A stretch of 64,000 nt of DNA from an uncultured Acidobacteriota bacterium (GTDB lineage Bacteria > Acidobacteriota > Vicinamibacteria > Vicinamibacterales > Fen-181): the NCBI GenBank assembly GCA_963741715.1, contig CAVUJA010000002.1, positions 753,764 to 817,763 on the forward strand, in the 5' to 3' direction. Shown piece after piece: positions 3,394 through 63,124 of this stretch. Under the pieces are notes generated by a model that saw nothing but the letters and a program-made list of their open reading frames with translations, did no database searches and was not told the DNA's origin. Each line of letters starts with the position of its first letter. Position 1 is the first letter of the stretch. The position numbers were made by a program, and so were the translations under genes.

Positions 3394-3615
3394 TCATTCG
3401 GGATTCGGATCACCGAATCCCGAATCCTGACTCCTGACTCCTTCGTCCGCGCCACTCCCGTCCCCGTCGAGCGGAAGGCGGGCGCGGGCGTCCATGTCCT
3501 CGCGGCGCGCCCGCACCACCCACACCACCACGCCGATCCAGGCGGCCAGGAAGAACAGCATCGAGCTGATCGCCCACGCGGCCGTCCCCGTCTGCGCGGC
3601 AAGCTCCTGCAGCAC
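3394..3615 (-). CDS. ccoQ: CcoQ/FixQ-like small cbb3 subunit
   Basis: C-terminal tail of ORF 3394..5496. GTG at 3615 is 3 nt after the ccoNO stop. It has a single TM (AAWAISSMLFFLAAWIGVVVWVV) followed by RARREDMDARARLPLDGD, the FixQ pattern. The last ~17 codons are encoded by the heptamer-repeat hairpin. Confidence 0.65.
   Translation of the reverse strand: MLQELAAQTGTAAWAISSMLFFLAAWIGVVVWVVRARREDMDARARLPLDGDGSGADEGVRSQDSGFGDPNPE
3396..3441. repeat. Perfect 13-bp hairpin plus heptamer repeats (family F4)
   Basis: ATTCGGGATTCGG (3396-3408), loop ATCA, CCGAATCCCGAAT (3413-3425), then CCTGACTCCTGACTCC. It overlaps the ccoQ 3' end and ends 12 nt upstream of the ccoP RBS. The same unit family occurs at 52163-52258. 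Confidence 0.9.
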
Positions 3616-3617
3616 GG

Positions 3618-5867
3618 CTACCTCGCCACCTGGGCCTGCCCCGCCATGGCTCCGGCCGGCGCACCAGATGCGCCGACAACCGGAGCGGCGGCGGGCTTCT
3701 TCCACCGGATGTCGGTGCCAAGCCGCTGGAGATACGCGGTGAGGGCGGTGATCTCCTTGTCGCCAAGCCCCTTCGGGCCCTGCTGCGCCTCCACTTCCGC
3801 AGTGATCACCTCCGCCTGCCGCTCCATCGCCGCCACCGCCGTCTCGATCTCGCCGTCGGTGTAGGGAACGCCGACGATGCGCAGCGCGCGCATCTTGGAG
3901 CCGATGAGGCCGGTGTCGTAGCTGGTGGTGTACAGGTGCGAGTAGCGAGGCATGATCGACCCCGGCGTCGTCGAATCCGGCTGGCGCATGTGGCGGACGT
4001 GCCAGAGCGACGGATACTTGCCGCCGACCCGCTGCAGGTCCGGGCCCGTCCGCTTCGAGCCCCACTGGAACGGGTGTTCGTAGACGTACTCGCCGGCCTT
4101 CGAATACTCGCCGTAGCGCTCGGTCTCGAACCGGAAGGGGCGAACCATCTGCGAGTGGCAGTTGTAGCAGCCCTCGCGGAGGTAGATGTCGCGCCCGGCC
4201 ACCTCGAGGGGCGTGTACGGCTTCACGCTGGCGATCTCCTTCACGTTCTCCTTGTCGAAGAACATCGGAAGCGCCTCGACCAGCGACCCGACGGCCAGCG
4301 CGAGCACCACGAGCACCGTGAAGGGGACCGGGACGCTCTCGAGCAGCCGGTGGACGCCGTGCCGCAGCAAGTGCTGCAGCCGGAAAAACGCGTGGTCGTA
4401 GGTGTTCGCCGGCGTCACGGCGCCGGGCGCCGAGAGGTCCTTGACCAGCGGCGGCACGCTCACCTCGGGCTCCACGGCGTAGCCGGCCGGCGCGCGCCTG
4501 ACGGTGGCGACGATGTTCCAGACGCCCATCAGCGCGCCCGAGAAGAAGAGGATCCCGGCGACGAGGCGGACCCAGTAGAGCGGGACGATCGCGATGACCG
4601 TCTCGATGAAGTCCGGGTACACCAGGCGGCCGTCCGCCTCGAAGGCGCGCCACATGCCCCACTGGGTGATGCCGGCGACCCACATCGACACCTGGTAGAG
4701 GATGAGGCCGACCGTGGCGATCCAGAAGTGCGTGGTCGCGAGCTTCTTCGAGTACAGCGCCGTCTTCCAGAGCCGCGGCACGACCCAGTAGAGGATGCCG
4801 AACGAGAGGAAGGCGTTCCAGCCGAGCGCGCCGGCGTGCACGTGCCCGATGGTCCAGTCGGTGAAGTGCGACACCGCGTTCACCGACTTGATCGACATCA
4901 TCGGCCCCTCGAAGGTCGCCATGCCGTAGTAGGTGACCGCGACCACCATGAACTTCAGGATCGGGTCTTCGCGGAGCTTGTGCCACGCGCCGCGCAGGGT
5001 GAAGAGGCCGTTCACCATGCCGCCCCAGGAGGGCATCCACAGGATCAGCGAGAACAGCATCCCGAGCGTGGACGCCCACTCGGGCACGGCCGAGTAGTGG
5101 AGGTGGTGCGGGCCCGCCCAGATGTAGACGAAGACGAGCGACCAGAAGTGCATGATCGACAGCCGGTAGCTGAACACCGGCCGCTCGGCGGCCTTGGGCA
5201 GGTAGTAATACATCAGCCCCAGAAACGGCGTCGTCAGGAAGAACGCGACGGCGTTGTGGCCGTACCACCACTGCATCAGGGCGTCCTTGACGCCCGCGTA
5301 GGCCGAGTAGCTCCCGAGCCACGAGTACGGCATCGCGATGCTGTTGCCGATGTGCAGGATCGCCACCGCGACGATCGTCGCGATGTAGAACCAGATGGCG
5401 ACGTAGAGGTGCCGCTCGCGCCGAATCGCGATCGTGCCGAAGAAGTTGACCGCGAACACGACCCAGAGGACCGCGAGGACGATGTCGAGCACCCACGGCA
5501 GCTCCGCGTACTCCTTGCCCTGGGTGTTGCCCGTCAGCAGCGCGAGCGCCGCCGCCACGATGAGCAGCTGCCAGCCCCAGAAGTGCACCCTCGACAGGAC
5601 GTCGCTGAAGAGCCGCGTCTTCAGCAGCCGCTGCATCGAGTGGTAGGTGCCGGCGAAGATGATGTTGCCGCAGAAGGCGAAGATGACGGCGTTGGTGTGG
5701 AGCGGGCGGAGCCGGCCGAACGTCAGGAACGGCGCCAGGTTCAGCCGCGGCATGAAGAGCATGGCCGCGATCACGACGCCCACCAGCATGCCGACCACGG
5801 CCCAGACCACGGCGGCCAGGAAGAAGAACCGCGGGGTTCGATCGTCGTAGCGGACGGTGTCGCTCAT
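3618..5867 (-). CDS. ccoNO: cbb3-type cytochrome c oxidase, fused subunits I+II (CcoN-CcoO)
   Basis: 749-aa ORF. The N-terminal ~480 aa are a multi-TM heme-copper oxidase (HTNAVIFAF, WYGHNAV, HHLHYS, GHVHAGALGW). The C-terminal part is CcoO-like with CYNCHSQMVRP and a FETERYGEY-type region. Confidence 0.95.
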   Translation of the reverse strand: MSDTVRYDDRTPRFFFLAAVVWAVVGMLVGVVIAAMLFMPRLNLAPFLTFGRLRPLHTNAVIFAFCGNIIFAGTYHSMQRLLKTRLFSDVLSRVHFWGWQLLIVAAALALLTGNTQGKEYAELPWVLDIVLAVLWVVFAVNFFGTIAIRRERHLYVAIWFYIATIVAVAILHIGNSIAMPYSWLGSYSAYAGVKDALMQWWYGHNAVAFFLTTPFLGLMYYYLPKAAERPVFSYRLSIMHFWSLVFVYIWAGPHHLHYSAVPEWASTLGMLFSLILWMPSWGGMVNGLFTLRGAWHKLREDPILKFMVVAVTYYGMATFEGPMMSIKSVNAVSHFTDWTIGHVHAGALGWNAFLSFGILYWVVPRLWKTALYSKKLATTHFWIATVGLILYQVSMWVAGITQWGMWRAFEADGRLVYPDFIETVIAIVPLYWVRLVAGILFFSGALMGVWNIVATVRRAPAGYAVEPEVSVPPLVKDLSAPGAVTPANTYDHAFFRLQHLLRHGVHRLLESVPVPFTVLVVLALAVGSLVEALPMFFDKENVKEIASVKPYTPLEVAGRDIYLREGCYNCHSQMVRPFRFETERYGEYSKAGEYVYEHPFQWGSKRTGPDLQRVGGKYPSLWHVRHMRQPDSTTPGSIMPRYSHLYTTSYDTGLIGSKMRALRIVGVPYTDGEIETAVAAMERQAEVITAEVEAQQGPKGLGDKEITALTAYLQRLGTDIRWKKPAAAPVVGASGAPAGAMAGQAQVAR

Positions 5868-5929
5868 CGCTTTCCCACCCTGTGTCGGTGTGGTCGGCGG
5901 CCGGGTGGCCGTCGGTCAGAGACTGGGAA

Positions 5930-5945
5930 TGTGAATCTTTTCACG
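5930..5945. promoter_or_regulatory. Candidate Crp/Fnr-family operator TGTGA-N6-TCACg upstream of ccoNO
   Basis: TGTGAATCTTTTCACG matches 9/10 of TGTGA-N6-TCACA. It is centred about 70 nt upstream of the ccoNO ATG in the divergent region with the TPR gene. A Crp/Fnr regulator is encoded at 35366-35998. Confidence 0.4.
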
Positions 5946-6191
5946 TTCGGCGGCACCGGCCGGCCGTAATTGTCGAGCCTGCGGCTCTACTATACCGATC
6001 TTGCGCCCGCCCGTCACGGGCCGGTCTTCCCTCCCGGCACCGCCTGTCTGCCGCGTTCGCCGGACCGTCGCCGGACGCCGCCCAACTTGACACTATCCGC
6101 TCGTTTAGTACATTGGACGGTGGTTCTTGCGTGGTTTTCACGCCATCTTCTTCGCCGCTTCGGCGTTGATTTCTTCAGAGAGGTGACAGCA

Positions 6192-7445
6192 ATGCGTACC
6201 CCATGGCGGACGTTGGCATGGCTCCTGGTTCTCTCGACGCTGGTTCCAGGGCTCGCCTTCGGACAGCGGCTCCGGCTCGTTGGCAGGATCGTCGACCCGC
6301 AGGGCAAGCCCATCGAGGGCGTGGAAGTGACGGCGACCTCGCCCGACGTCTCGACCTTCCGCGAAGTCCGCACGACCGACAAGAAGGGCAGCTTCACGAT
6401 CGACCTGCCGCAGAACGAGGTGGACTACACCTACAGGTTCGTCAAGGCAGGCTACGTGCCGCTCGACGCCAAGCAGCACTGGAGCCTCGAAGGCAGCCAG
6501 AAGTTCGACTGGACGATGCAGCCGGGCGCGTCCACGGCCGACAGCGCGGCCGCGCCGGTCACGTCCTCCGAGCCGGCCATCGTCGCGTACAACGCCGGCG
6601 TGGAGGCATTGAAGGCCAAGGATGCCCGTACCGCCGAGGCCAAGTTCAACGAGGCGGTCGGCCTCGATCCCAAGATGGTCCCCGCCTGGGTGGCGCTGAG
6701 CACGGTCCAGGTGCAGACGGGGCACAACAAGGAGGCGGCGGAGAGCGCCGAGAAGGCGATGGCCCTCGGCTCCAAGGACGAGGCGATGCTCACGGCCCGG
6801 TGGCAGGCCTACAAGAACCTGAAGGACACCGACAAGGCGGCGGCCGCGCTCAAGGACATGGAGGCGATCGGCCGCCGCGCCGAGGAGGCGAAGAAGTTCC
6901 ACAACGAGGGCGTGGCGCTGGCGAAGGCGGGCGACAACGCGGGAGCCTTCGGCAAGTTCCAGGAGGCGCTGAACCTCGACCCGACACTGCGCGCCTCGAT
7001 GGTGGGCATGGCCACCGCGGCCCTGAAACTGGGAAAGAACGCGGAGGCGGCGACGGCCGCCGAGAGCATCCTCAAGCTGGATCCCAGGAACGACCAGGCG
7101 CTCCGGATCCGCTACAACGCCTGCCTGGCCCTGGGCGACCCCGACCGGCTGTTCGACGCCCTGACCGGCCTGGCCGCGGTGGAGCCGACGGTGGCCAAGA
7201 ACGGGATGCTCAAGCTGGCGTTCGACGCGTACGATGCCAACGACAAAGCCAAGGCGAAGGCGCGCTTCCTGAAGGTCCTCGAGGTCGATCCGAACCAGCC
7301 GCAGGCCCACTACTACCTGGCGCTGGTCCTGGTGGCCGACGGCAACACGGCCGAGGCAAAGGCGCACCTCGAGAAGTTCATCGCCATCGCCCCGAATGCC
7401 GCCGAGGCCGCGAACGCCAAGGAAATGTTGAAGCAGCTCAAGTAG
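6192..7445 (+). CDS. Secreted CarboxypepD_reg-domain plus TPR-repeat protein
   Basis: ATG at 6192 after GAGAGG. Signal peptide MRTPWRTLAWLLVLSTLVPGLAFG. Then LVGRIVDPQGKPIEGVEVT (carboxypeptidase-regulatory-like fold) and multiple TPR-like helical repeats. Confidence 0.85.
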   Translation: MRTPWRTLAWLLVLSTLVPGLAFGQRLRLVGRIVDPQGKPIEGVEVTATSPDVSTFREVRTTDKKGSFTIDLPQNEVDYTYRFVKAGYVPLDAKQHWSLEGSQKFDWTMQPGASTADSAAAPVTSSEPAIVAYNAGVEALKAKDARTAEAKFNEAVGLDPKMVPAWVALSTVQVQTGHNKEAAESAEKAMALGSKDEAMLTARWQAYKNLKDTDKAAAALKDMEAIGRRAEEAKKFHNEGVALAKAGDNAGAFGKFQEALNLDPTLRASMVGMATAALKLGKNAEAATAAESILKLDPRNDQALRIRYNACLALGDPDRLFDALTGLAAVEPTVAKNGMLKLAFDAYDANDKAKAKARFLKVLEVDPNQPQAHYYLALVLVADGNTAEAKAHLEKFIAIAPNAAEAANAKEMLKQLK

Positions 7446-7555
7446 CTGGCAGCTGGCAGCCGGCAGCCTGACACGAAGGGCCCGCGGAACCCTCGGGCCC
7501 TTCGCGTTGTACGCGCGATCCGCTGGCGGCTGGCAGCGGGCGGCAGGCAGCTGGC
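7445..7555. repeat. GCTGGCA-type heptamer repeats (two blocks, 7445-7465 and 7521-7555)
   Basis: GCTGGCA GCTGGCA GCCGGCA starts at the stop codon of the TPR gene. A second in-phase block reads CGCTGGC GGCTGGC AGCGGGC GGCAGGC AGCTGGC. Both blocks end with GCCTGACACG. Confidence 0.8.
7475..7503 (+). terminator. Hairpin terminator candidate after the TPR gene
   Basis: GAAGGGCCC (7475-7483) pairs with GGGCCCTTC (7495-7503), 30 nt after the stop. It is followed by GCGTTGT, a weak U tract. Confidence 0.5.
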
Positions 7556-7633
7556 GGCCTGACACGCGTGGTCCGCTGCCCGGTGCTGCGTCCGTGATCG
7601 GCTGCCGGCTACCTGCTACTCCGTCCGTGGCAC

Positions 7634-7666
7634 AAAAAAAGGGGACGGCCCCGAAGGACCGTCCCC
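7634..7666 (-). terminator. Rho-independent terminator of the TonB-dependent receptor gene
   Basis: The minus strand reads GGGGACGGTCCTTCGGGGCCGTCCCC followed by TTTTTTT. It lies about 35 nt downstream of the stop at 7701. Confidence 0.85.
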
Positions 7667-7700
7667 GCTTCAAGTCTTCCCTGCCGACTATCCCGTCATC

Positions 7701-10700
7701 CTAGAAGGTGAACTGCACGCTCGCGTGGAGGTAGCGGCCCAGCGAGTCGTACGTCCCGTAGAAGCCCGCGCCGTAGTCGTTCGGGCTCTGTCCGGGCGCC
7801 AGCGGCGGTTCCTTGTCGAACACGTTGTTGATGCCGCCCACGATCTGGATGCCCTTCCGCAGGTTGTACGTCACGCCCATGTCCATGTAGTTGTACGTGG
7901 GGATCTTGTCGATGTTGTTCGCCTTCAGCAACGCGTCCTGCCCCGGGACGAACAGCGCTTCCTGAGTACTCAGGACGTCCTGCGTGACGGGCCCCTGCAG
8001 GCGCCAGCCGACCGACAGGACGAACTTCCAGTTGGTCTCCCACGAGAAGCGCATCATGTGGCGCCAGGTCGGGGTCGGGATGCCGCAGGTGTTCCCGAAG
8101 AGGCCGACGCAGTCGTAGGAATACAGGCCGGTGTCGATGGTCTGCGCCATCAGGTAGGTGCCGATCATGTTCACCGACAAGAGGCCCTTGTCGCCCAAGG
8201 GGTGGCTGTAATTGCCGGTGATGTCCATGCCCCGCGAGCCCAGCTTGCCGACGTTCTGGTTGGTGGTGATCGTGTAGGCGTCGTTCGTCAACCACAACGA
8301 GCCGAACCGGTCGCGGTGAATCAGGCCGCACAGCAACGCGTTGCCGGTGGCCGCGCACTGGTTCTGGATGTCGTTCGCGCCGAGCGACCCGATGGTCTGG
8401 TCGATCTTGATGTCGTAGTAGTCGAGCGTCGTCGAGAAGCCCGCGAGCTTCCTGGGCGTCAGCACGAAGCCGACGGTGTACGTGTCGGCGGTTTCCGGCG
8501 AGAGGTTGGGGTTGCCGCCGCCGAGGGTATTGTACTGGTTGGCCGGGTTGTCAGGGACGTTGCCGTACTGCGCCGCGGAGACACCCTGCAGCGCGCACTG
8601 AGCCCGCGTCGAGACCGGGCTATCGCCGGAGCAGTTGTCCTGGCTGCCGTTGAGGCCGAGGCCCTGCGGCGTGTACAACTCGGTGATGTTGGGCGACCGG
8701 GTCGCACGGTTGTAGCCGAGGCGCAGCTTTACGTCCGGCACCGGCGTCCACGAACCCTGGATCTTGTAGGTCGAGTGGGTGCCCGTGCTGCTGTAGTTCG
8801 ACACGCGGTAGCCGAGTTCGAGGCTGAGGTCCTTGGCGAGCTTCGCGTCCTGCACGAACGGAATCACGCCTTCTGTATAGAACTCCTTGACGTTGTAGCT
8901 GCCCTCGACCGGCAGCGTCGGGCCGCCGGACCCGGCGCCGAGCGCCTGCTGGAAGGGCATGTCGGGGTGGACATACAGATACTCGTCGCGGTACTCGACG
9001 CCGAACGCCGCCTTGATGCCCTCCGTCGCCTTGGGCGACACCCAGCCGTAGTCCTTGAAGTCGGCAGAGACGCGCCCGTTGACCATGGCCGTCCGCGTGC
9101 CCGACATCAGCACCTCGGCCAGGCTCAGGTAGCCCAGGGCGGCTTGCGTGACCCCGCCCTTCTTGAAGATGTTCCACGGCACGCAGCCGGCGTTGCCGGA
9201 CAAGCAGTTTCCATCCGGACCAACGAGCAGCGCATCCTGGATGTTGGCGGCGTTGAGGTCGTTCGCATACTCCTGCGGCGAGTTCACCTGCGCCCACAGG
9301 AAGTACGCGTCGTAGCTCCACACCTTGTTGAGGTCGCCCTTCAGGCCCCACGTCGTGCGCCAGTCGGTGTGACGCAGCTTCGATACGCGGCCGCCGCCTT
9401 CCACGTTGCGCCGGCCAATCAACACGGTCGCGATGTCCGTGGGACCGTAACCTGCGGCCGTGCACAGCAGCTGTCTCTCCTGCGCGCTGAGCAGCGGGTT
9501 GTCGCAGTTCAACAGGCTGCTGTTGTTGAAGTCGCCCGACGGCGCAATCTGCGCGTCGGTGTAGTCGTCCATGAACATGAAGTCGCCGTAGGCCTTCAGC
9601 TTCGAGTTCCAGTCGTAGTTCAGGAAGCCGCCGCCGGCCCACCGCTTGTCGGGGCGCTGCATGAAGTTCGCAGGCGCGTAGTTATAGTTGTCCGAGGACT
9701 GGCGCGGCCGCATGGTGTCGCCGGTAGCCGAGTTCGGATCGAGGACGTAGTCCCCTACCTTCCTGTTCGCGGCGTTGTAGACCTGGAAGCGCCCGTATTG
9801 CCAGGTTCCCGAACCGCCGCACGTCGGGCCGTTCAAGGTCATGCCGCCGAGGACCGAGCAGTTCGTGTAGTCGCGCGCGTCCTTGGTGATCGCCGCGGTG
9901 TAGCGGTAGTCGAGGTAGACCGTCGCGTGGCCCTTGCCGTCGGCGAACTTGCCGCCGAGCGCCACGTTGAAGTCCATCGGCCCGCCGTTCCACATGCTGC
10001 CGGAGGGGTAGGGGAAGCCCGCCTTCTGGTTGATCGACTGCGCCAGCTGGTTGCTGTTGTTGTGCTGGTAGCCGCTGACCTGGACGCCGCCGCGAACGCC
10101 CGTGAAGTCCCTGTCGAGGACGAAGTTGACGACGCCGGCCACGGCGTCCGCGCCGTAAACCGACGACGCGCCGCCCGTCAGGACGTCGACGCGCTTGACG
10201 AGCGCCGAGGGGATGAAGTTCAAGTCGGGCGCGGTCGAGAACGCATCGCCCGAACCCATCCGGCGGCCGTCGAGAAGGACCAGGGTACGGTTGGTGCCGA
10301 GGTAGCGGAGGTCAACGGTCGCCGTGCCAGACGACCCGTTCGACACCGTCGAGTTCTGCGCCGCGAACACCTGCGGCAGGGTGGTCAGCAGGTCCTCGAT
10401 GCGGGTCATGCCCCGGTAGGTCAGCTCTTCCACCTCGAGGGTGGTGACCGGGCTCATGGCCTCCATGTTCGGGCGCGGAATCAGGGTGCCGGTGACCTGG
10501 ACCTGTTCGGACCGTGTGCCAATCTCGAGCTTCGCTTCCAGGACGACCGGCTGGCCGGCGGCCACGATCGCCTGATTCGTCTTGATGCCGAATCCCGAAA
10601 GTTCGAAGGTAACGGTATAGGTGCCGGGGTCCAGTTTGTCGATCGTGTATCTGCCGCTCGAATCCGTCACCGCCGTCCGAGTTGTGGTGCCAGCCTTCGC

Positions 10701-10874
10701 GGTGACCGTCACACCGGGCAGCATCGCACCCGTCGCGTCGCTGACCGAGCCCGTGATGCGCCCGGTACCCTGGGCGGCCGCAACCAGCGGCAGACCAAGC
10801 ACGAGCAACCAAATCAGCAATAACCGCCACGCTAGGGTCCAACGATGAGCCGCTGCCAGACGTTCACGATCCAT
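7701..10874 (-). CDS. TonB-dependent receptor with N-terminal CarboxypepD_reg domain
   Basis: ATG at 10874 is 5 nt after AAGGAGG. Signal peptide ...LLIWLLVLGLPLVAAAQG. Then ITGSVSDATGAMLPGVTVT, a plug region (VDVLTGGASSVYGADAVAGVVNFV) and a long beta-barrel ending ...ASVQFTF. Confidence 0.95.
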   Translation of the reverse strand: MDRERLAAAHRWTLAWRLLLIWLLVLGLPLVAAAQGTGRITGSVSDATGAMLPGVTVTAKAGTTTRTAVTDSSGRYTIDKLDPGTYTVTFELSGFGIKTNQAIVAAGQPVVLEAKLEIGTRSEQVQVTGTLIPRPNMEAMSPVTTLEVEELTYRGMTRIEDLLTTLPQVFAAQNSTVSNGSSGTATVDLRYLGTNRTLVLLDGRRMGSGDAFSTAPDLNFIPSALVKRVDVLTGGASSVYGADAVAGVVNFVLDRDFTGVRGGVQVSGYQHNNSNQLAQSINQKAGFPYPSGSMWNGGPMDFNVALGGKFADGKGHATVYLDYRYTAAITKDARDYTNCSVLGGMTLNGPTCGGSGTWQYGRFQVYNAANRKVGDYVLDPNSATGDTMRPRQSSDNYNYAPANFMQRPDKRWAGGGFLNYDWNSKLKAYGDFMFMDDYTDAQIAPSGDFNNSSLLNCDNPLLSAQERQLLCTAAGYGPTDIATVLIGRRNVEGGGRVSKLRHTDWRTTWGLKGDLNKVWSYDAYFLWAQVNSPQEYANDLNAANIQDALLVGPDGNCLSGNAGCVPWNIFKKGGVTQAALGYLSLAEVLMSGTRTAMVNGRVSADFKDYGWVSPKATEGIKAAFGVEYRDEYLYVHPDMPFQQALGAGSGGPTLPVEGSYNVKEFYTEGVIPFVQDAKLAKDLSLELGYRVSNYSSTGTHSTYKIQGSWTPVPDVKLRLGYNRATRSPNITELYTPQGLGLNGSQDNCSGDSPVSTRAQCALQGVSAAQYGNVPDNPANQYNTLGGGNPNLSPETADTYTVGFVLTPRKLAGFSTTLDYYDIKIDQTIGSLGANDIQNQCAATGNALLCGLIHRDRFGSLWLTNDAYTITTNQNVGKLGSRGMDITGNYSHPLGDKGLLSVNMIGTYLMAQTIDTGLYSYDCVGLFGNTCGIPTPTWRHMMRFSWETNWKFVLSVGWRLQGPVTQDVLSTQEALFVPGQDALLKANNIDKIPTYNYMDMGVTYNLRKGIQIVGGINNVFDKEPPLAPGQSPNDYGAGFYGTYDSLGRYLHASVQFTF

Positions 10875-11165
10875 AGGATCCTCCTTGGAGAGCCGTACCG
10901 GCCCCCATTGCCGCCTACCCGGGTTCGAGGTCGCTAATCGAATATCGCTACGAGACATGCCGATGGCGAATGAAACCGCCGTGATCAGGGCGAACTATAC
11001 GCAAGCGAGAGGCCATAGACGAGCTTTTTCGGCCGAGTAGATACTAACCCCTTTGTCAACAACGTGTTGTCGAATGTCGGCGGGACAGATTGTGGCGCCG
11101 TCCCCGCCAAATATTCATATGCTTGGATCCAGAGGGGTAAACCGATCCAAAGTTGAGGATCGGTT

Positions 11166-11260
11166 GGCCAACTGGGTAACTGGGTAACTGGGTAACTGAG
11201 CAACTCGCCAACTGATCAACTGGCCCCAAACTGGCCAACTCGCCAACTGGTCAACTGAGC
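11166..11260. repeat. Octamer tandem array NNYAACTG x11 (family F1, inverted orientation)
   Basis: GCCAACTG GGTAACTG x3 AGCAACTC GCCAACTG ATCAACTG ... GTCAACTG. This is the reverse complement of the CAGTTGNN array at 11343-11557. Confidence 0.9.
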
Positions 11261-11342
11261 ACCCTGCACGGCTGTTCAGCTGGGCCCAGTTCGCGAATTG
11301 ATTAGTTTGTGCCGTCTCGGGGTCAATTGTCCAGGTTAATCT

Positions 11343-11557
11343 CAGTTGAGCAGTGCCCAGTTGCCCAGGTTGCGCTTCTCCAGTTCTCCAGTTGGCCAAG
11401 TTCTCCAGTTGCCCAGTTGCGCAGTTCTCCAGTTCTCCAGTTCTCCAGTTCTCCAGTTGCGCAGTTCTCCAGTTGCCCAGTTGTTCAGTTCTCCAGTTGC
11501 CCAGTTGCCCAGTTGCCCAGTTATTCAGTTGTCCAGTTGCCCAGTTGCCTAGCTGCC
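11343..11557. repeat. Octamer tandem array CAGTTNNN, about 25 units (family F1)
   Basis: CAGTTGCC/CAGTTCTC/CAGTTGCG units are in phase from 11381 to 11549 and more degenerate from 11343. The array ends at the AEC transporter stop codon (11549-11551). Confidence 0.95.
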
Positions 11558-12463
11558 CTTCATCGCCGCGATGAGCAGCGTAACCGACACCGGGCTGGCG
11601 AGCGTCGAGAACAGCACGCAGGCGGTGACGAAGGACGGCGCGACGTCGAACTCGAGCGCGAGAATCGTGGTGAGCACTGCGCTCGGCATCCCCGACTGCA
11701 CGATGGCCGCCTGGCGCGCCGCGCCGGTCAGGCCCAGGACGTGCGTGGCGCCCACCGCGATGAGCGGCGTCACCACCAGCGTCAGCACGCTCGCCAGCAG
11801 CACGAGCCCCGGGCGGTCGGGCCACCCGCTCCGTTCCAGCTGCATCCCCAGCACGAGGATCATGACGGGCAGCGCCGCGCCGCTGAGCAGTTCGATCGGC
11901 CGCATCACCGGCGTCGGGATCCCGACGCCGAGGCCCAGCACCGCCCCCGCGGCAACGACGCCCCACACGGCCGGCACGCGAAGCACGCCCTTCGCCGCCG
12001 CGCCGAGGCTCCGCCGCCCGGCGGACGCGAGGAACACGCCCAGCGAATAGGTCGCAATCGCGTTGGCGACGAAGTAGACCGCCGCGTGCGCGAGCGCCTC
12101 GCGGCCGAATGCGAACAGGACGACGGGCAGGCCGTAGTTGCCGCTGTTCGAGAACATCACGACCAGCAGGAACCCGCTGAGGGTCGCGCGGTCGAGGCGG
12201 AGCGGCAGCGTCGCCAGGCGAGCGATGAGACCGACCCCGCCGATCACGGCGAACGTCAGCAGCATCATCCGCCCGAAGTCGCCCGCGCTGAGCGACGACG
12301 TGACGATCAGGTGGAAGACGAGGCACGGCGAGAGCGCGTTGAACGAGATTCGCGACACCGTGCGAACGTCTCCCCCGAGCACGCGGGCGATGGCGAAGCC
12401 CACCGCGGCCACGATGAAGATCGGCAGGACGTCGTTGGCGAAGATGGAGAGCAGCAGCGTCAC
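11549..12463 (-). CDS. AEC (auxin efflux carrier) family transporter
   Basis: 304-aa polytopic membrane ORF, MTLLLSIFANDVLPIFIVAAVGFAIARV..., with two homologous halves. GTG start. Confidence 0.85.
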   Translation of the reverse strand: MTLLLSIFANDVLPIFIVAAVGFAIARVLGGDVRTVSRISFNALSPCLVFHLIVTSSLSAGDFGRMMLLTFAVIGGVGLIARLATLPLRLDRATLSGFLLVVMFSNSGNYGLPVVLFAFGREALAHAAVYFVANAIATYSLGVFLASAGRRSLGAAAKGVLRVPAVWGVVAAGAVLGLGVGIPTPVMRPIELLSGAALPVMILVLGMQLERSGWPDRPGLVLLASVLTLVVTPLIAVGATHVLGLTGAARQAAIVQSGMPSAVLTTILALEFDVAPSFVTACVLFSTLASPVSVTLLIAAMKGS

Positions 12464-12481
12464 TGGGAGGGAATGATAGTA

Positions 12482-12649
<168 letters not shown>

Positions 12650-12882
12650 GACGAACGGCCGCGATTCGCAGTCGTGGGGTTGTGGGGCAGAGGGCCTTCA
12701 GGCCCGCCGATCGTCCCTCGACGCAGGCTCGGGGCGACCCTGAGCCTGCCGAAGGGTCGCGAGGCTGAAGCCCCGCGCCACAGCAGGCGCCCGCCGAATC
12801 GTGCACTGGCACCCTGGCCAGCTTCCAGGGCAACCCCGCCGAAACTTCCTTCATCCGTCATGACCCCGGCCTGGAATGATGT

Positions 12883-13359: not shown

Positions 13360-13400
13360 GCGGAGATTCTATACAAGCGGCGGCCGGAGCCCTAGTCCGA

Positions 13401-13851: not shown

Positions 13852-13879
13852 GCCGCAGGTCGCAAGCCGCAAGGCGCAA
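13852..13879. repeat. Heptamer repeats GCCGCAG/GTCGCAA x4 (family F5)
   Basis: GCCGCAG GTCGCAA GCCGCAA GGCGCAA. Same unit family as 26511-26552. Confidence 0.8.
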
Positions 13880-14026
13880 GCCTGATTCGCGCGTTGAGGC
13901 TAGGACTGTAAAGGCCAGGTAAAGTAGGGGGTTGCACTGAAACGATCGCCGGGGCGGAGTCGTCTTAGTTAGGTGAACGGACGTTCGGTCGCCGCTTCCG
14001 GCCCGCTGCCCGCACGAGGTCTGCTG

Positions 14027-20489: not shown

Positions 20490-20587
20490 GACGTGCGACT
20501 CGCGGCGTGCGACTTTCGACGTGCGACTGTTGACGTCCGACCTTCGGACGTGCGACCTTCGACGTGCGGCGTGCGACGTGCGCGTCG
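20490..20587. repeat. GACGTGCGAC-core repeats at about 14-nt period (family F7)
   Basis: About 8 copies of (G)ACGTGCGAC(T/C) lie between the methyltransferase stop and the OYE gene start. Confidence 0.8.
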
Positions 20588-20691
20588 TCCCGGAACTCCC
20601 GAACGCCGTGCTGGCCGCAAGTCGCCGGCCGCACGCCGCAGGCCGACATCGAGGTCGACCCGTGGACTGTTGACTCTCGGTGGTGTCGTCC

Positions 20692-23681: not shown

Positions 23682-23738
23682 CAGCGGCACAGTAGCCAGT
23701 CAGCGGTGAGCGGTAGGCGGTTCGTCGCGCGTGCGAAG

Positions 23739-26431
<2,693 letters not shown>

Positions 26432-26471: not shown

Positions 26472-26552
26472 CGGCTTGCGGCTTGCGACGTGCGCCCCTT
26501 GCGGCGCAATGTCGCAAGTCGCAAGCCGCGAGTCGCAGGCCGCAGGCCGCAA
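26472..26552. repeat. Inverted heptamer arrays CGGCTTG x2 versus GTCGCAA/GCCGCAG x6 (family F5)
   Basis: Left arm 26472-26485. Right arm 26511-26552 reads GTCGCAA GTCGCAA GCCGCGA GTCGCAG GCCGCAG GCCGCAA. The left arm is the reverse complement of the unit. It lies between the GNAT stop and the Aas-like start. Confidence 0.9.
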
Positions 26553-26560
26553 GCCGGTCT

Positions 26561-50492: not shown

Positions 50493-50548
50493 TCTGCATT
50501 CTACGTTCTGCATTCTACATTCTGCATTCTACATTCTTCATTCTGCTG
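50493..50548. repeat. Heptamer array TCTGCAT/TCTACAT x8 (family F3)
   Basis: TCTGCAT TCTACGT TCTGCAT TCTACAT TCTGCAT TCTACAT TCTTCAT TCTGCTG, between the ABC ATPase stop and the 2-TM gene start. Confidence 0.95.
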
Positions 50549-52158: not shown

Positions 52159-52162
52159 AGGA

Positions 52163-52258
52163 GGAGTCAGGAGTCGGGATTCAGGAGTCAGTCAGGAGTC
52201 AGGACCGGGGATGTGCGGGCGGGTGACGCCCCGAATCCCGAATCCTGGCTCCCGACTC
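52163..52258. repeat. Inverted heptamer arrays GGAGTCA/GGATTCA versus CCGAATC/CCGACTC (family F4)
   Basis: Left arm 52163-52201: GGAGTCA GGAGTCG GGATTCA GGAGTCA GTCA GGAGTCA. Right arm 52231-52258: CCGAATC CCGAATC CTGGCTC CCGACTC. The arms are complementary. The left arm ends 5 nt from the permease start codon. Confidence 0.9.
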
Positions 52259-54728: not shown

Positions 54729-54856
54729 GGTTCCAGTTCCCCGAGTTCCCCGAGTTCCCCAGTTGCCCAGTTCCCCAGTTGCCCAGTTTTCCAGTTGGCC
54801 AGTTACCTCAGTTCCCCAGTTGCCCAGTTGGCCAGTTGCCCAGTTCCCTAGTTCTC
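54729..54856. repeat. Octamer array CCAGTTNN, about 15 units (family F1)
   Basis: CCAGTTGC/CCAGTTCC/CCAGTTGG units. Same family as 11343-11557, about 43 kb away. It overlaps the stop codon (54848-54850) of the upstream gene and lies between it and pspA. Confidence 0.95.
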
Positions 54857-55504
54857 CGTCCCCGACGGGTCGTGCAGGCGCGGCGAGGCCTGGACGACCC
54901 GGGCCACCGCCTCCTGGCCGAAGAACTCCAGCACCTTCTGGATCTCGAGCTTCCTCCCGTTGCAGGCCGCCGCGATCCCCTGCTGCTGCTGGACCTGCTG
55001 CTCCATCTTCGCCCGCAGCTTCCGCACTTCCTCTTCGAACTGGGCGATGCGGTGGGTCGCTTCCTCCAGCACCTGCTGGGTGTCGCCGGCGCTCTTGCGG
55101 ATGTACCCCTCGAGCGCCTGGATCTCGGCCACACCCGTCTCGATGATGTTGTCGATGGGGACGCCGAACGCCTTGAGCGAAGCCTCGACGATCTGCTTCT
55201 TCACTGCGACCGGGGTGTCGGCAGGCAGGCTGGAAAGCAACTGCTGCGCTTTTCCCACGCGCTCGCGCTCGGCCTCGTCGATCCCGGCGGCGCCGAACAC
55301 CTGGTCGAACGCCACCTGGCCGTCGGTGGGCGGCGGCGGCTCCTGCTGGAAGATCGGGGGCGTCGGCTGCGCCGCGGCGGCCGCGGCAATCGACGCCGCG
55401 TCTGCGTCGCCTGCCGCCGCGCCGTCGTCGGGCGCCGGCTGCGCCTCGTCCTGAACGATGAACCAGCCGAGGACGGTCGAGCCCCAGGTCTTCTTGTCGG
55501 CCAT
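54848..55504 (-). CDS. Hypothetical protein: N-terminal amphipathic segment, Ala/Pro-rich linker, C-terminal coiled coil
   Basis: ATG at 55504 (MADKKTWGSTVLGWFIVQDE...). The conserved-looking C-terminal half reads FDQVFGAAGIDEAERERVGKAQQLLSSLP...KKQIVEASLKAFGVPIDNII...CNGRKLEIQKVLEFFG. GC3-rich codons. No family recognised. Confidence 0.65.
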   Translation of the reverse strand: MADKKTWGSTVLGWFIVQDEAQPAPDDGAAAGDADAASIAAAAAAQPTPPIFQQEPPPPTDGQVAFDQVFGAAGIDEAERERVGKAQQLLSSLPADTPVAVKKQIVEASLKAFGVPIDNIIETGVAEIQALEGYIRKSAGDTQQVLEEATHRIAQFEEEVRKLRAKMEQQVQQQQGIAAACNGRKLEIQKVLEFFGQEAVARVVQASPRLHDPSGTEN

Positions 55505-55557
55505 GAACTCCCCCGCGAGTGACGGGCGCATGATAACACGCGCGTCGAAAGCCCCGG

Positions 55558-56568: not shown

Positions 56569-56728
56569 TGGAGGCCGATTATACTCCGCGGCGGCTTGCA
56601 TCCCCGCCGCCCAATGGGCTAGCATCGGGACCGGCCGGCGTGTTCGACAGCCGGCCGAAAGCAGCTGGTCGAATGCTCGATGCAGGACCGGTCGCGCCAT
56701 CGGCGCGCGGCATGGTGTACCGAGCGCT

Positions 56729-56798
56729 GTGCATTCGCCGTCGTGCATGGTGCATTCTGCGTTGTGCATTGTGCATTGTGCATTGTGCATTGTGCATT
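56729..56798. repeat. Heptamer array GTGCATT, 10 in-phase units with 5 perfect at the 3' end (family F3)
   Basis: GTGCATT CGCCGTC GTGCATG GTGCATT CTGCGTT GTGCATT x5. It sits in the divergent region between the 56568 (-) and 56825 (+) genes. Confidence 0.95.
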
Positions 56799-59715: not shown

Positions 59716-59745
59716 CAAGGGTGGCAAAGAACCGCGTCAACGCGC

Positions 59746-59852
59746 AATGCACAATGCACAATGCAAAACGTAGAGACACTCGCCGCGGATCGCCCGTCGC
59801 TCTCTGCGCGTCGCATTCCCCATTGTGCATTCTGCATTTGGCATTGTGCATT
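59746..59852. repeat. Inverted heptamer arrays AATGCAC x3 versus NNGCATT x6 (family F3) inside the czc operon
   Basis: Left 59746-59766: AATGCAC AATGCAC AATGCAA. Right 59811-59852: TCGCATT CCCCATT GTGCATT CTGCATT TGGCATT GTGCATT. The arms are mutually complementary and lie in the 182-nt czcB-czcA gap. Confidence 0.9.
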
Positions 59853-59897
59853 CATCCACCAGGCCGCGCCCGTTCAGCGGCCTGACGGCGTCCAGCC

Positions 59898-62800: not shown

Positions 62801-63029
62801 CGATTCGCGGCTCCGGCCGGTGCTGATGACGGCGGGGATCGCGATCTTCAGCCTGCTGCCGATGGTGGTCGCCACCGGGCCCGGCGCGGAAGTGCAGCGC
62901 CCGCTGGCCGTCGTCGTCATCGGGGGCCTCGTCACGTCGACGCTGCTGACGTTGCTCGTGCTGCCGGTGCTCTACAGGATGGTCGAGGGACCGGAAGGCT
63001 CACGGATCGGGGTAGTGAAGGGTGGGTAG
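59898..63029 (+). CDS. czcA: CusA/CzcA family heavy-metal efflux RND transporter
   Basis: 1043-aa ORF, MLERLIALSLRNRLLV...DAFPDVTNIQVEV..., 12-TM RND architecture. Confidence 0.95.
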   Translation: MLERLIALSLRNRLLVGLALVLVVGVGTWAVATIPVDAFPDVTNIQVEVVSTAPGLSPLEIERMVTYPIESAMRGLPGLVTMRSATKYGISVITLVFRDDVDIYFARQQVHERLSDVSRNLPAGVESDMGPIASAMGEIYQYTIEPGPGGQASGGDDDVQRLTRLRTIQDWVVSPLLKGVTGVTEVNSFGGYIRQFELLVDPDRLLKYDISVEAVREAVRRNNANVGGSVVTRGSEEYIIRGVGMIRSEADIASIVLKSQAGTAVCVSDVATVRAGHAVRQGASLKDGRGEAVGGIVLMLRGENSRTVVAALEARVREVNDGHVLPDGLQIVPFYRRSPIVEASTRTVLKALAEGAVLVVAVLLILLRSARGAFVVILALPLSILLTFTVLKVAKIDANLMSLGGLAISIGMIIDATIIQVENVQRRLGQRGADGTGGRMATVLAAAMEVRKPSILGELIIALTFVPIITLQGLEGKMFSPLAFTVALALLSSLLLSIFVIPVLCLALLKAETKESPVLQAIRRVYLPALNWTLGHRLAVVAAGGVLVVGALAMVPHLGTEFLPIMDEGAFDMDVQLLPGVSLDKALDTTLEIEKRLMTFPEMQTVVSRTGQTGVAIEARGVDKTGFVGALKPRSEWRTAATREELADKMRDAIADIPGVVASFSQPIQCRIDELVAGTRAQVIVKLFGDDLQVLKRKAGEIARVLAQVRGAEDLAEEKVAGQPYLTVSVDRDRIARYGANASDVLDLIETAVGGRSVSQVYLENQVVDVVIRVPESHRQSVEGLSSLLVDVPGGARLPLSQLAHVDVQEGPVQISREDGRRRIGVELNVAGRDIGSFVAEAQARLKRDVALPAGYYLTWGGQFENQQQAMRRLGVIAPAVAALIFVLLLVTFGSLRAAGLIIFNLPFALAGGVFALWLSGLYLSVPASVGFIVLFGVAVLNGVVLISSITQFRTEGMPAGQAVIAGCDSRLRPVLMTAGIAIFSLLPMVVATGPGAEVQRPLAVVVIGGLVTSTLLTLLVLPVLYRMVEGPEGSRIGVVKGG

Positions 63030-63038
63030 ACGAATGTC

Positions 63039-63124
63039 GTGGCTACCGGCTGGTGGCTCGTGGATGGTGCACACGCGACGCGCCAGCCACGAGCCACGAG
63101 CAACCACTGGCCACTAGCCACTAC
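63039..63124. repeat. Inverted heptamer arrays GTGGCTA-type versus GCCACGA/CTAGCCA-type (family F2) between convergent czcA and glyA
   Basis: Left 63039-63066: GTGGCTA CCGGCTG GTGGCTC GTGGATG. Right 63086-63124: GCCACGA GCCACGA GCAACCA CTGGCCA CTAGCCA CTAC. Same unit as the 24-copy array at 12482-12649. Confidence 0.9.

Follow-up and report, generated by a model that had tools for sequence, protein, structure and literature searches.

REPs are single imperfect palindromes, 20–40 nt in length and conserved in sequence, that RAYT transposases mobilise; their classic role is the protection of upstream mRNA from 3'-to-5' decay, with differential expression within operons as the outcome. STRRs of cyanobacteria are 7-bp head-to-tail repeats (Mazel et al. 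1990, as cited in PMC4692102) whose inverted arrangements also form intercistronic hairpins, such as the one between hupS and hupL, for which transcript stabilisation or translational coupling has been proposed (PMC2670836). The GGGAATC arrays of Xanthomonas are intergenic, comprise 2–18 units and lie mostly 0–50 bp from the stop codons of a neighbouring ORF; each genome has 70 to 75 arrays in the form of convergent inverted pairs, transcription occurs on either strand, and position and single or paired type are conserved between species while length is variable (PMC4692102). According to the summary in PMC4679880, LSSRs with units of 5–11 nt are predominantly heptanucleotides, are phylogenetically sporadic, stay out of coding DNA except where the unit length is divisible by 3, and have been proposed to arise by polymerase slippage with a step of ~7 nt (Mrazek, Guo and Shah 2007). 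As PMC4679880 and PMC4692102 report of the same survey, certain bacterial lineages have an excess of heptanucleotide LSSRs in their intergenic DNA. TAACTGA repeats of Beggiatoaceae, cyanobacteria and Bacteroidetes are intergenic heptamers, sporadic across lineages, many of which lie just upstream of start codons (PMC4679880).

The window analyzed here, a 64,000-nt stretch of DNA from a high-GC, Vicinamibacterales-like soil member of the Acidobacteriota, was described in a preliminary description as holding arrays of no named element class. This could not be upheld, given that heptanucleotide simple-sequence repeats, STRRs and Xanthomonas GGGAATC arrays had already been described. Like the STRRs of heterocystous cyanobacteria, the window arrays belong to several unrelated unit families per genome that are dispersed over intergenic and intercistronic sites, and the hupS-hupL hairpin resembles the operon-internal ccoQ-ccoP, HlyD-AcrB and binding-protein/permease sites. 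Unlike STRRs, they include a family with 8-nt units, reach 27 copies and occur about once per 4 kb. The STRR1 unit is CCCCAGT, and the resemblance of the window's CCCCAGTT to it is within chance expectation. The window unit GGGATTC, and GGGATTT or GGGAATC of its relatives, are close variants of Xanthomonas GGGAATC and Nostoc GGGGAYT; however, Xanthomonas has essentially one family, which is G-quadruplex-capable, whereas the window has at least six, most of which (CCACTAG, GCATTGT, TCGCAAG, CTGCCTA) are not. Going by its summary in PMC4679880, the LSSR survey includes neither inverted pairing, shared unit vocabularies nor Acidobacteriota. The AEC upstream array resembles the start-codon-proximal TAACTGA repeats, although the latter have one unit, mostly 2–6 copies and almost no inverted arrays (PMC4679880), whereas the window has numerous units, as many as 27 copies and pairing of about half of its arrays. 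As with REP, BIME and REPIN elements, the window pairs are U-tract-less hairpins, intergenic or within operons, between a stop codon and the next gene; unlike REPs, their arms are tandem 7–8-nt units of variable number with no conserved palindrome. The malE-malF REP case is a parallel to the binding-protein/permease site at 52162–52258.

Detection and Distribution of the Arrays

Arrays were called by Tandem Repeats Finder, and the coding (58.3 kb) and intergenic (5.7 kb) DNA of the window was compared in a separate in-house periodicity scan. Every array of the preliminary description was found again at its position by Tandem Repeats Finder (Table 1). The periodicity scan gave 11 period-7 arrays (10 intergenic, one coding) and four period-8 arrays (all intergenic), with essentially no arrays at the other periods from 4 to 15. 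The earlier impression that many gaps are occupied was thus correct: arrays are present in 15 of the ~27 gaps that exceed 40 nt, and 14 arrays fall in 5.7 kb of non-coding DNA vs. one in 58 kb of coding DNA. The local density is 0.23 arrays per kb. Array positions are confined to 3–27 kb and 50–63 kb of the window; the 23-kb stretch at 27–50 kb, with 11 ordinary gaps, has none.

Unit sequences named among the arrays further include CCACCAG, GGCAACUG, CCACTAG, GCATTGT and TCGCAAG. Recurrence of the same family at distant loci, as proposed before, was confirmed for exact unit classes (four pairs of distant gaps vs. 0.09 expected, P = 5e-5) and was also seen when one mismatch was allowed (six pairs vs. 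1.9 expected, P = 0.018). A 31-nt composite, AAGGAGTC(A/G)GGAG(T/C)CAGGATTCGGGATTCGG, is near-identical at 3405–3441 and 52228–52262, 49 kb apart, and direct sequence comparison showed that one arm of the 52162–52258 pair is identical to the 3396–3441 element at 29 of 31 bases. The arrays are not CRISPR, since spacers are absent and the Pfam-scanned window genes include no cas genes; they had also been set apart from classical REP/BIME elements, in agreement with the lack of Rfam matches.

Table 1. Tandem arrays and inverted pairs of the window and their genomic setting (TRF, Tandem Repeats Finder).
Position	Strand	Feature	Fold z; TRF; family	Setting
3396..3441	−	GGAGTCA/GGATTCG heptamer array, internal 13-bp hairpin	z −4.2; TRF 3413–3442, period 7	Between ccoQ and ccoP, inside cbb3 oxidase operon; ends 12 nt upstream of ccoP ATG (3383)
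7444..7620	+	Three-piece element	z −1.9, weak	
11165..11261	+	Octamer array, unit CAACTGGN, ~12 units	TRF period 8, 11.8 copies	Inverted partner of 11343..11558
11343..11558	+	Octamer array CCAGTTSN, 27 units	TRF period 8, 27.1 copies; D1	Overlaps stop codon of AEC transporter gene (11549–12463, minus strand)
12480..12648	+	Heptamer array GTGGCTA/GTGGCTG, 24 units	TRF period 7, 24.1 copies, 90% matches	Edge 17 nt upstream of AEC gene's GTG start
13852..13882	+	GCCGCAA/GTCGCAA array, 4.4 units	D11	Divergent gap, 90 nt upstream of SpoIIE-phosphatase gene
20490..20645	+	Degenerate GACGTGC-type array (20490–20582) and GCCGCAA-type array (20613–20645)	z −0.2, not significant	After stop of methyltransferase gene
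23699..23779	+	Inverted pair, GCGGTRA (23699–23722) vs. six perfect CTGCCTA (23739–23779)	z −2.65; TRF 23739–23779, period 7, 5.9 perfect copies	Convergent gap, PEPCK gene/Aas-like gene; Aas-like stop codon within array
26472..26556	+	Inverted pair, CGGCTTG (26472–26487) vs. GTCGCAA/GCCGCAG (26511–26556)	z −4.7; TRF 26472–26487, 26513–26556	Between GNAT gene's stop and Aas-like gene's start
50493..50546	+	TCTGCAT/TCTACAT array, 7.7 units	D4	Between ABC-transporter ATPase gene and next gene, minus-strand gene row
52162..52258	+	Inverted pair of GGAGTCA/GGATTCR units	z −4.9; TRF arms 52162–52204, 52230–52245	Between substrate-binding-protein and permease genes, ABC transporter operon
54733..54854	+	Octamer array CCAGTTSC, ~15 units	Period 8, 14.9 copies; D1	Overlaps stop codon of gene 54848–55531; upstream of pspA
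56728..56798	+	GTGCATT array (I9), 8–10 units	D4	Divergent gap; 89% complementary to 59738–59774
59745..59852	+	Inverted pair, CAATGCA (59745–59765) vs. GCATTST (59813–59852)	z −3.2	Between HlyD-type adaptor and AcrB-type pump genes, efflux operon
63039..63124	+	Inverted pair of GTGGCTN/CCACNAG units	z −5.3; TRF 63048–63069, 63085–63101, 63104–63123	Convergent gap, AcrB-type gene/SHMT gene

Positions of the Arrays Relative to Genes

Most arrays occupy 3' or intercistronic positions. Overlap with the stop codons of the TPR gene, ccoQ, the AEC transporter gene, the Aas-like gene and gene 54848 was found as previously reported. Orientation relative to transcription is inconsistent, some of the octamer (F1) arrays being sense and some antisense. 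The arrays adjoin housekeeping genes (cbb3 oxidase, PEPCK, ABC and RND transporters), and the window also contains genes for an RRM-domain protein and an NYN/LOTUS protein.

The claim that the arrays have no coding signal is nearly right; the exception is the ccoQ-like ORF, whose final 15 residues and stop codon are encoded by the array at 3396–3441. The ccoQ-ccoP spacer of the relatives L003–L006 measures 8–12 nt and lacks such an element, and a GGAGTC seed is present at this junction in L004. The repeats reported as one GCTGGCA array at 7445–7555 exist, but they form two short period-7 arrays with an ordinary hairpin between them. CTGGCAG units at 7444–7467 begin within the TAG stop of the TPR gene, the second array occupies 7522–7558, CCTGACAC comes after each of the two, and a weak inverted partner lies at 7598–7620. 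Beyond this element, at 7641–7666, is the canonical T-tract terminator of an opposite-strand gene; the genome thus has at least one canonical U-tract terminator in use. Matches at period 7 reach 67% in the F7 array (20490–20587), which is degenerate.

Inverted Pairs and Predicted Hairpins

Folds of the inverted pairs are much more stable than those of shuffled sequence (z −2.7 to −6.5, the latter for the 411-nt fold of the 11165/11343 pair), which agrees with the long imperfect hairpins envisaged earlier. The real order of unit variants was stabler than at least 95% of permutations in four of seven pairs, including the 11165/11343 pair (100 of 100 permutations) and the 63039–63124 pair (96.5%); the other three showed no mirror order of unit variants in the permutation test. 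All three convergent gaps of the window carry a pair. At the PEPCK/Aas convergent gap, a hairpin of −58 to −75 kcal/mol occurs in three genomes with differing unit families: that of L164 (−75 kcal/mol) is built from the window's family, and that of L003 (−63 kcal/mol) from an octamer family. At the Aas/GNAT site, L003 has a simple 8-bp GC hairpin only.

Pairs also occur within operons, and arrays are also found in divergent gaps (12 of 51 classified arrays in the relatives); termination therefore cannot be their general role. The earlier proposal of U-tract-less terminators or mRNA stabilisers is accordingly narrowed to the paired arrays, for which it is plausible.

The Array at the AEC-Gene Promoter

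On the AEC-gene strand of the 12480–12648 array, TAGCCA forms a −35-like box, and a conserved TATCAT −10 box lies 18 nt away. The comparison of orthologous gaps suggested previously revealed large differences in copy number, with ~4 units in L003, L090, L093 and L164, ~12 in L001 and L084, and 24 in the window. The ancestral unit order TAGCCAC-TGACCAC-CRGCCAC is kept beside a conserved TATGAT-N9-GTG, and the 24-unit array has a duplicated block structure; this array has demonstrably grown in place. Because its near end abuts the fixed −10 box, gain or loss of units does not alter the −35 to −10 geometry, which speaks against the copy-number expression switch once suggested, at the sole promoter-proximal array analyzed. 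The arrays of L001 and L084 are identical, as are those of L087 and L088, and no length variants within populations were seen in these comparisons.

Lineage Restriction and Turnover among Relatives

The relatives contained 60 period-7 arrays vs. at most 11 for any other period, and 55 of 62 arrays were intergenic although 90% of the DNA is coding (P = 1.5e-46). Array density was 0.12 per kb in the AEC-gene relatives vs. 0.008 per kb in 77 loci from other phyla. The unit vocabulary of the window is also found in the relatives, and orthologous arrays were present in 27 of 80 metagenome loci; the close relatives L004–L006 and L165 lack arrays altogether. Arrays also turn over at orthologous sites. 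The gap downstream of the AEC gene shows a change from period 7 to 8, with ~5 units of the 7-mer GCAACTG in L085 and L086 at the position of the 11343–11558 octamers. Units also change by point mutation within a single array, as in L164, where ACTGCCT and ACTGGCA units are mixed.

Origin and Possible Roles of the Arrays

We consider it likely that the arrays are lineage-specific long simple-sequence repeats with 7-nt units, driven by slippage, and the acidobacterial counterpart of STRRs and Xanthomonas GGGAATC arrays, with the pairs probably REP-like. Arrays would originate in situ, from short seed repeats or the arms of pre-existing hairpins, and would grow and shrink via replication slippage and duplication of multi-unit blocks; one 7-nt family would have drifted to 8 nt. 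They would persist only where reading frames stay intact, and would thus pile up at stop codons, promoters and intercistronic spacers. With both hairpin arms made of units, the arms would remain roughly mirror-symmetric, possibly via template switching or selection for pairing, and their product would be a long GC-rich RNA hairpin with no U-tract. Neutral slippage alone does not explain the recurrence of exact units at distant loci (P = 5e-5), the composite shared by 3405–3441 and 52228–52262, the limited unit vocabulary common to relatives, the array-free L004–L006 and L165, or the array-free 23 kb of the window with its 11 ordinary gaps. The three pairs that have no mirror order of unit variants, and the canonical U-tract terminator used elsewhere in the genome, also count against this reading.

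It is doubtful that the arrays are multivalent platforms for one or a few lineage-specific RNA- or DNA-binding proteins, with selection for binding keeping the vocabulary constant. Units do recur across loci and genomes, arrays lie near start codons, promoters and stop codons, like proposals, for RNA, have been published for TAACTGA repeats and Nostoc heptamers, and the RRM-domain and NYN/LOTUS genes are circumstantial support; however, such binding is hard to reconcile with at least six unrelated unit families, inconsistent orientation, free drift of units within arrays and of the period from 7 to 8, replacement of one family by another at the PEPCK/Aas site, and close relatives that have the same genes without arrays. 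It is unlikely that the paired arrays represent mobile elements of the REPIN/MITE type, small and non-autonomous, copied between intergenic sites by a transposase encoded elsewhere, with the heptamer arms incidental. The 31-nt composite, the exact unit classes in distant gaps, the clean presence or absence among relatives at the ccoQ-ccoP and Aas/GNAT sites and the different families in the PEPCK/Aas gap across genomes would fit transposition. Yet at ccoQ-ccoP and Aas/GNAT neither conserved termini nor target-site duplications can be seen and seeds or hairpins pre-exist in relatives, the AEC upstream array grew in place, each of at least six families would require recognition, and the window genes covered by the Pfam scan included neither a transposase nor a RAYT-type gene.

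Contingency loci, whose copy number would switch or tune expression of the neighboring gene, as phase-variable pathogens do, are very improbable. The copy-number difference between relatives at the AEC promoter is strong and the array there overlaps the −35 position, but whole-unit changes next to the −10 anchor keep both the spacing and the sequence, most arrays sit in 3' or intercistronic positions, housekeeping genes flank them, and length variants within populations were not seen (L001 = L084, L087 = L088). Errors of assembly, named earlier as a possible refutation, or of sequencing in a long-read metagenome-assembled genome can practically be dismissed as the source of the arrays because orthologous arrays occur in 27 of 80 metagenome loci and, with the same units, in the independent short-read (Illumina) assemblies L001 (MEGAHIT/ENA) and L084 (JGI) as well as dozens of JGI contigs. 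Signs of indel error do exist in the window, where an ADOP/MacB-type permease gene is split across two frames; no assembler error, however, would yield non-coding restriction together with periods 7 and 8 only.

If the arrays are slippage-driven simple-sequence repeats, single arrays would mostly be neutral filler, occasionally co-opted, e.g., as a −35 box or a stop codon. Periodicity, confinement to intergenic DNA, recurrence of families, folding, lineage restriction, in-place growth and turnover have been shown, and from these we infer the slippage mechanism and any RNA-level function. The paired hairpins probably act like REP and STRR hairpins, as 3'-end barriers, transcript stabilisers or insulators between transcription units, and are not thought to be efficient terminators. 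The arrays are a new, very dense example of a bacterial repeat type known from cyanobacteria and Xanthomonas.

Period and Placement of the Arrays

Tandem Repeats Finder recovered an array at each position listed in the preliminary description; the main arrays and the related features are collected in the table. An independent periodicity scan of the window detected 10 intergenic arrays and one coding array of period 7, four intergenic and no coding arrays of period 8, and almost no arrays at the other periods from 4 to 15. According to the gene map, which was built from codon statistics and Pfam, 58.3 kb of the window is coding and 5.7 kb intergenic, and with 14 intergenic arrays versus one coding array the proposed intergenic bias was borne out. 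Arrays occupied 15 of the approximately 27 window gaps longer than 40 nt. The units follow each other head to tail, as in heptanucleotide long simple-sequence repeats (LSSRs), with period 7 dominant (11 arrays in the window and 60 in relatives), and the longest heptamer runs in the window reach 24 units at 90% identity. Two arrays were redefined. At 7445-7555, repeats are present as two short arrays flanking an ordinary hairpin and not as the single GCTGGCA array reported, and the array at 20490-20587 is present but degenerate.

The recurrence of unit families at distant loci was supported as well. When exact unit classes were compared, with rotation and strand allowed and dispersal judged within 64 kb of the genome, four pairs of distant gaps had a class in common (0.09 expected, P = 5e-5); with one mismatch allowed, six pairs were found (1.9 expected, P = 0.018). 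In addition, a 31-nt composite is common to 3405-3441 and 52228-52262, with 29 of 31 bases alike. The unit forms include CCACCAG, GGCAACUG and, in RNA letters, GCAUUGU, and many units have an ACTG/CAGT core (ACTGGGCA, ACTGGCA, ACTGCCT, ACTGACC). At 12527-12625, the unit variant CTGGTGG gives rise to 11 overlapping occurrences of GCTGGTGG, the Chi octamer of E. coli; the window as a whole has 17.

Five arrays overlap a stop codon, as had been noticed, and each of these stops is itself array sequence. The view that the arrays have no coding signal was not upheld, given that the ccoQ-like ORF ends in 15 codons of array sequence. In relatives the ccoQ product is shorter and ends at an ordinary TGA, immediately ahead of the ribosome-binding site of ccoP.

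Coordinates of arrays, folded regions and associated features (window coordinates unless a comparison locus, L, is named)
Feature	Coordinates	Strand	Remarks
Array, period 7	12480-12648		24.1 copies, 90% matches (Tandem Repeats Finder)
Array, period 8	11343-11558		27.1 copies (Tandem Repeats Finder)
Array, period 8	54733-54854		14.9 copies (Tandem Repeats Finder)
Array, period 8	11165-11261		11.8 copies (Tandem Repeats Finder)
Array, period 7	23739-23779		5.9 perfect copies (Tandem Repeats Finder)
ACTG/CAGT-core sites	11165-11558; 54733-54854; L003 5993-6055		also in L085, L086, L098, L164
ccoQ-like ORF tail	3394-3615	-	C-terminal 15 residues GVRSQDSGFGDPNPE and stop from heptamer element
-10 hexamer region, AEC gene	12461-12502	-	orthologues L001, L003, L085-L095, L164
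Folded region	3385-3445		z -4.2
Folded region	52155-52270		z -4.9
Folded region	59735-59865		z -3.2
Folded region	63030-63132		z -5.3
Folded region	26455-26562		z -4.7
Folded region	23682-23790		z -2.65
Folded region, octamer pair	11150-11560		411 nt, z -6.5
Intrinsic terminator	7641-7666	-	11-bp GC stem then T7, after TonB-dependent receptor gene
Intra-operon pair	3396-3441		ccoNO, ccoQ, pair, ccoP; array end 12 nt before ccoP ATG
Operon arrays	52162-52258; 50493-50546		binding-protein gene, first array, permease gene, ATPase gene, second array
Operon arrays	59745-59852; 63039-63124		OEP, HlyD, first array, AcrB, second array
Viral CCACCAG array, example	L178 3512-3630 and 3633-4046		

Hairpin Formation by the Array Pairs

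The inverted pairs had been proposed to form long hairpins. When the regions were folded in the transcribed orientation, the pairs folded much better than dinucleotide shuffles, and the folds of 7440-7570 (z -1.9) and 20482-20600 (z -0.2) were not significant. When the unit variants of one arm were rearranged, the stability fell in at least 95% of permutations for four of seven pairs, and thus the arms of those four mirror each other variant by variant. All three convergent gaps of the window hold an array pair, and two divergent gaps hold single arrays.

The array hairpins are not followed by a T-run and therefore do not resemble intrinsic (Rho-independent) terminators. A scan of 3000-14200 for canonical terminators gave one convincing match, at 7641-7666 and distinct from the arrays, which indicates that the genome uses canonical terminators alongside the repeat-built hairpins. 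Rho-utilisation sites were also considered. Read in the sense orientation, the array preceding the AEC transporter gene is rich in C and poor in G, but the idea was dropped because the remaining single arrays, read in the direction of the upstream transcript, are G-rich. Given that several pairs sit between genes needing co-expression, we infer that the pairs are not efficient terminators but REP-like RNA hairpins without U-tracts, which would protect 3' ends or insulate neighboring genes.

Arrays at Orthologous Sites

At the ccoQ-ccoP junction, the spacer is 8-12 nt in relatives versus an approximately 50-nt GGAGTCA/GGATTCG element in the window; the junction of one relative (L004) carries GGGAGTCCTGAAGAGGA, a possible seed for that element. 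The gap between the Aas-like and GNAT genes contains a plain 8-bp GC hairpin in L003 versus a heptamer-built hairpin of approximately 90 nt in the window. In the convergent PEPCK/Aas gap, the window has a CTGCCTA hairpin (-58 kcal/mol), L164 a mixed ACTGCCT/ACTGGCA hairpin (-75 kcal/mol) and L003 a CCAGTTAT octamer hairpin (-63 kcal/mol); at this site the hairpin persists across the genomes compared and its unit family changes. Downstream of the AEC gene, approximately five GCAACTG 7-mers in L085 and L086 compare with 27 GGCAACTG 8-mers in the window, and inverted TCTTGCGA/TCGCAAGA pairs are found in L087, L088, L090 and L093. From this mix of units, the octamer family, the GTGGCTA/G family and the CTGCCTA/GCTGGCA family grade into each other around an ACTR core, and the octamer looks like a heptamer with one base gained.

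Relative to L003 (10906-10977), the window has a 5.5-kb insertion (5996-11557) comprising the TPR gene, the TonB-dependent receptor gene and the large octamer arrays; in L003 the AEC gene directly adjoins ccoNO, and in L001 a histidine-kinase gene occupies that place. At 16115-18781, an ADOP/MacB-type permease gene is split in two frames (MacB_PCD, and MacB_PCD with FtsX), and it is either a pseudogene or a long-read assembly indel error.

The Array Upstream of the AEC Gene

A distance of 17 nt separates the end of the 24-unit array from the GTG start of the AEC gene downstream. In orthologues down to approximately 73% identity, this GTG is preceded at 9-10 nt by the hexamer TATGAT, which reads TATCAT in the window; this suggests a promoter of the leaderless type. 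A TAGCCA box at 18-nt spacing from the -10 hexamer is supplied by the array. The next gene downstream in relatives has a like layout, with TATCCT or TATTCT approximately 8 nt before the ATG.

The array is missing in L087, L091 and L095, where the stop of the upstream gene abuts the -10 box. It consists of 3-4 units (TAGCCAC-TGACCAC-CRGCCAC-TAC) in L003, L090, L093 and L164, of approximately 12 in L001 and L084, and in the window of 24 units that form the blocks [TGA, CAGx4, TAGx3, CAGx2] and [TGA, CAGx5, TAGx6]. The array has grown in place, probably via unit slippage and block duplication, and its copy number at a conserved position (~4, ~12 and 24 units) varies as described for LSSRs. A copy-number-dependent expression switch, one of the roles first suggested, is disfavored because this promoter-proximal array is anchored to, and upstream of, the -10 box. 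A phase-variable contingency repeat, which would lie within an ORF or between -35 and -10, is likewise disfavored, given this position of the AEC array and the location of all others between cistrons or 3' of genes.

Distribution of Arrays Among Relatives and Within the Window

Arrays of period 7 or 8 number 15 in the 64-kb window (0.23 per kb), 61 (57 of period 7) in 516 kb from 80 metagenome loci with an AEC orthologue (0.12 per kb), and 11 in 1.33 Mb from 77 loci of other phyla (0.008 per kb). AEC transporter homologues point to Vicinamibacterales-like Acidobacteriota as the source of the window, and the relatives retrieved via ccoNO carry Acidobacteriota MAG labels. In high-GC relatives, at the loci where genes were called, intergenic DNA holds 55 of the 62 arrays, in DNA that is 90% coding (P = 1.5e-46). 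For 30 of these 55, an inverted partner lies no more than 200 nt away; by gap type, 28 of the intergenic arrays are in co-directional, 12 in divergent and 11 in convergent gaps. No arrays were found in L004-L006, whose ccoNO is 81-85% identical, or in L165, a 7-Mb contig whose AEC transporter is 78% identical, and thus the trait is patchy even between close relatives. No earlier report of such arrays in Acidobacteriota was found in the literature searched, the coverage of which was incomplete.

Within the window, none of the 11 gaps of 27000-50000 contains a period-7/8 array versus 15 of 16 gaps elsewhere (Fisher P = 9e-7). The gaps of this 23-kb block are ordinary intergenic regions of 52-213 nt, and no sign of foreign origin was seen in its composition (GC3 0.908 versus 0.927, all tetranucleotide correlations at least 0.966). 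One of them holds a long non-repetitive inverted repeat at 49345-49432 (GGCCTAGATGCCTTGAGGGGC ... GCCCCTCAAGGCATCTAGAGCC), an ordinary hairpin at a type of gap that elsewhere would hold an array pair. Adjacent genes at 27022-29340 encode an NYN-nuclease/OST-HTH (LOTUS) protein and a 177-aa RRM_1 RNA-binding protein; these proteins are possible repeat binders, and no link to the arrays was found.

Comparison with Known Repeat Classes

The arrays had been taken for a previously unknown element class. Their anatomy and dynamics instead match described bacterial heptanucleotide LSSRs, which, according to a summary of Mrazek 2007 (PMC4679880), are over-represented in the intergenic DNA of scattered lineages and are proposed to arise by slippage with a step of approximately 7 nt. 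The GGGAATC arrays of Xanthomonas, of 2-18 units, are found close to stop codons; each genome has 70-75 inverted pairs, and the arrays vary in length at constant positions (PMC4692102). The STRRs of cyanobacteria are 7-bp units that form intercistronic hairpins, with a proposed role in transcript stabilisation or translational coupling (PMC2670836). Strict STRRs occur in heterocystous cyanobacteria with STRR1-3 units, whereas the present arrays have other units and a host among Vicinamibacterales-like Acidobacteriota; because host and unit sequences differ, they are named STRR-like and not STRR. In Xanthomonas and Nostoc, every unit has a run of at least three G and four units can form a G-quadruplex. 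In contrast, the units capable of this here are restricted to the GGGATTC and GGGCAACT/GGGGAACT types (CCACTAG, GCATTGT, GCCGCAA and CTGCCTA are not), and with two qualifying families the G-quadruplex was rejected as a general explanation.

The arrays were correctly separated from classical REP/BIME elements, since their arms are variable numbers of 7-8-nt units; no conserved imperfect palindrome of 20-40 nt (REP/BIME/REPIN) was common to the loci, and no RAYT (Y1) or other transposase was detected among the window genes scanned with Pfam. CRISPR was likewise rightly set aside, as the units are contiguous without spacers and the Pfam scans of the window genes gave no Cas domains. MITE-type terminal inverted repeats with target-site duplications were not seen in the small sample of three sites whose orthologues lack arrays. 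The window gave no Rfam match at gathering thresholds and no tRNA or tmRNA.

The ACTG/CAGT core of many units also occurs in the cyanobacterial STRR1 and STRR3 units and in the TAACTGA repeat of Beggiatoaceae. Similarity of units across phyla, to STRR1-3, TAACTGA and GGGAATC, was set aside: by a rough estimate, with roughly one near-match per ~60 comparisons, it is about what chance would give. In viral contigs, the octamer pattern was nearly absent (three matches), and the CCACYAG pattern occurred in 34 contigs, mostly from an unrelated phage group of 55-59% GC; these matches gave no evidence of phage spread of the present arrays. In the IMG/VR contigs L169-L200, several of them approximately 40 kb long, (CCACCAG)4-21 runs directly up to the ATG start of a gene for a small lipoprotein (MKPLLALLALLLAAC...); its copy number differs among contigs, and the arrays are often at contig ends.

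Origin and Significance of the Arrays

The arrays are most likely STRR-like heptanucleotide repeats in a new lineage. Slippage would generate them, and no place but the DNA between reading frames would tolerate them; most single arrays look neutral, with an occasional one co-opted, for instance as a -35 box or a stop codon. Independent short-read assemblies rule out an artefact of assembly. However, slippage leaves unexplained the reappearance of identical units at loci far apart, the 31-nt composite, the unit vocabulary common to several genomes, the absence of arrays in some close relatives, and the array-free block, whose composition is like that of the remainder. For these reasons a low probability is retained for three other models, in which the arrays are mobile elements, are binding platforms, or are produced by an actively generating factor.

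A broader reading, which we consider unlikely, is that array-richness is an actively produced heritable trait of certain Vicinamibacterales, in which a specific factor makes and keeps a small vocabulary of 7-8-nt units that build U-tract-less bidirectional terminators and insulators and parts of leaderless-type promoters. The candidate factor could be altered replication or repair, template switching that symmetrises the arms, or a sequence-specific binding protein, and from the patchy presence among close relatives a co-varying gene is predicted. If this were true, the long-standing question of heptamer repeat function would become directly testable.

Tandem heptamer repeats between bacterial genes have been on record since 1990, and papers of 2015 and 2022 still only speculate on their origin and function. 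What stands out here is the unusual density of the arrays and their many unit families; the kind itself is already described. For acidobacterial MAGs, the arrays affect annotation, by lengthening or shortening ORFs (the CcoQ tail and several array-derived stop codons), and assembly, by breaking short-read assemblies. In this high-GC lineage it can be tested whether hairpins built of repeats take the place of canonical terminators, and among its many sequenced relatives, array-rich and array-free ones at 80-85% protein identity provide a contrast for finding the responsible gene or mutational process. The main value of these arrays is thus as a comparative system for where heptamer repeats arise and what they do.
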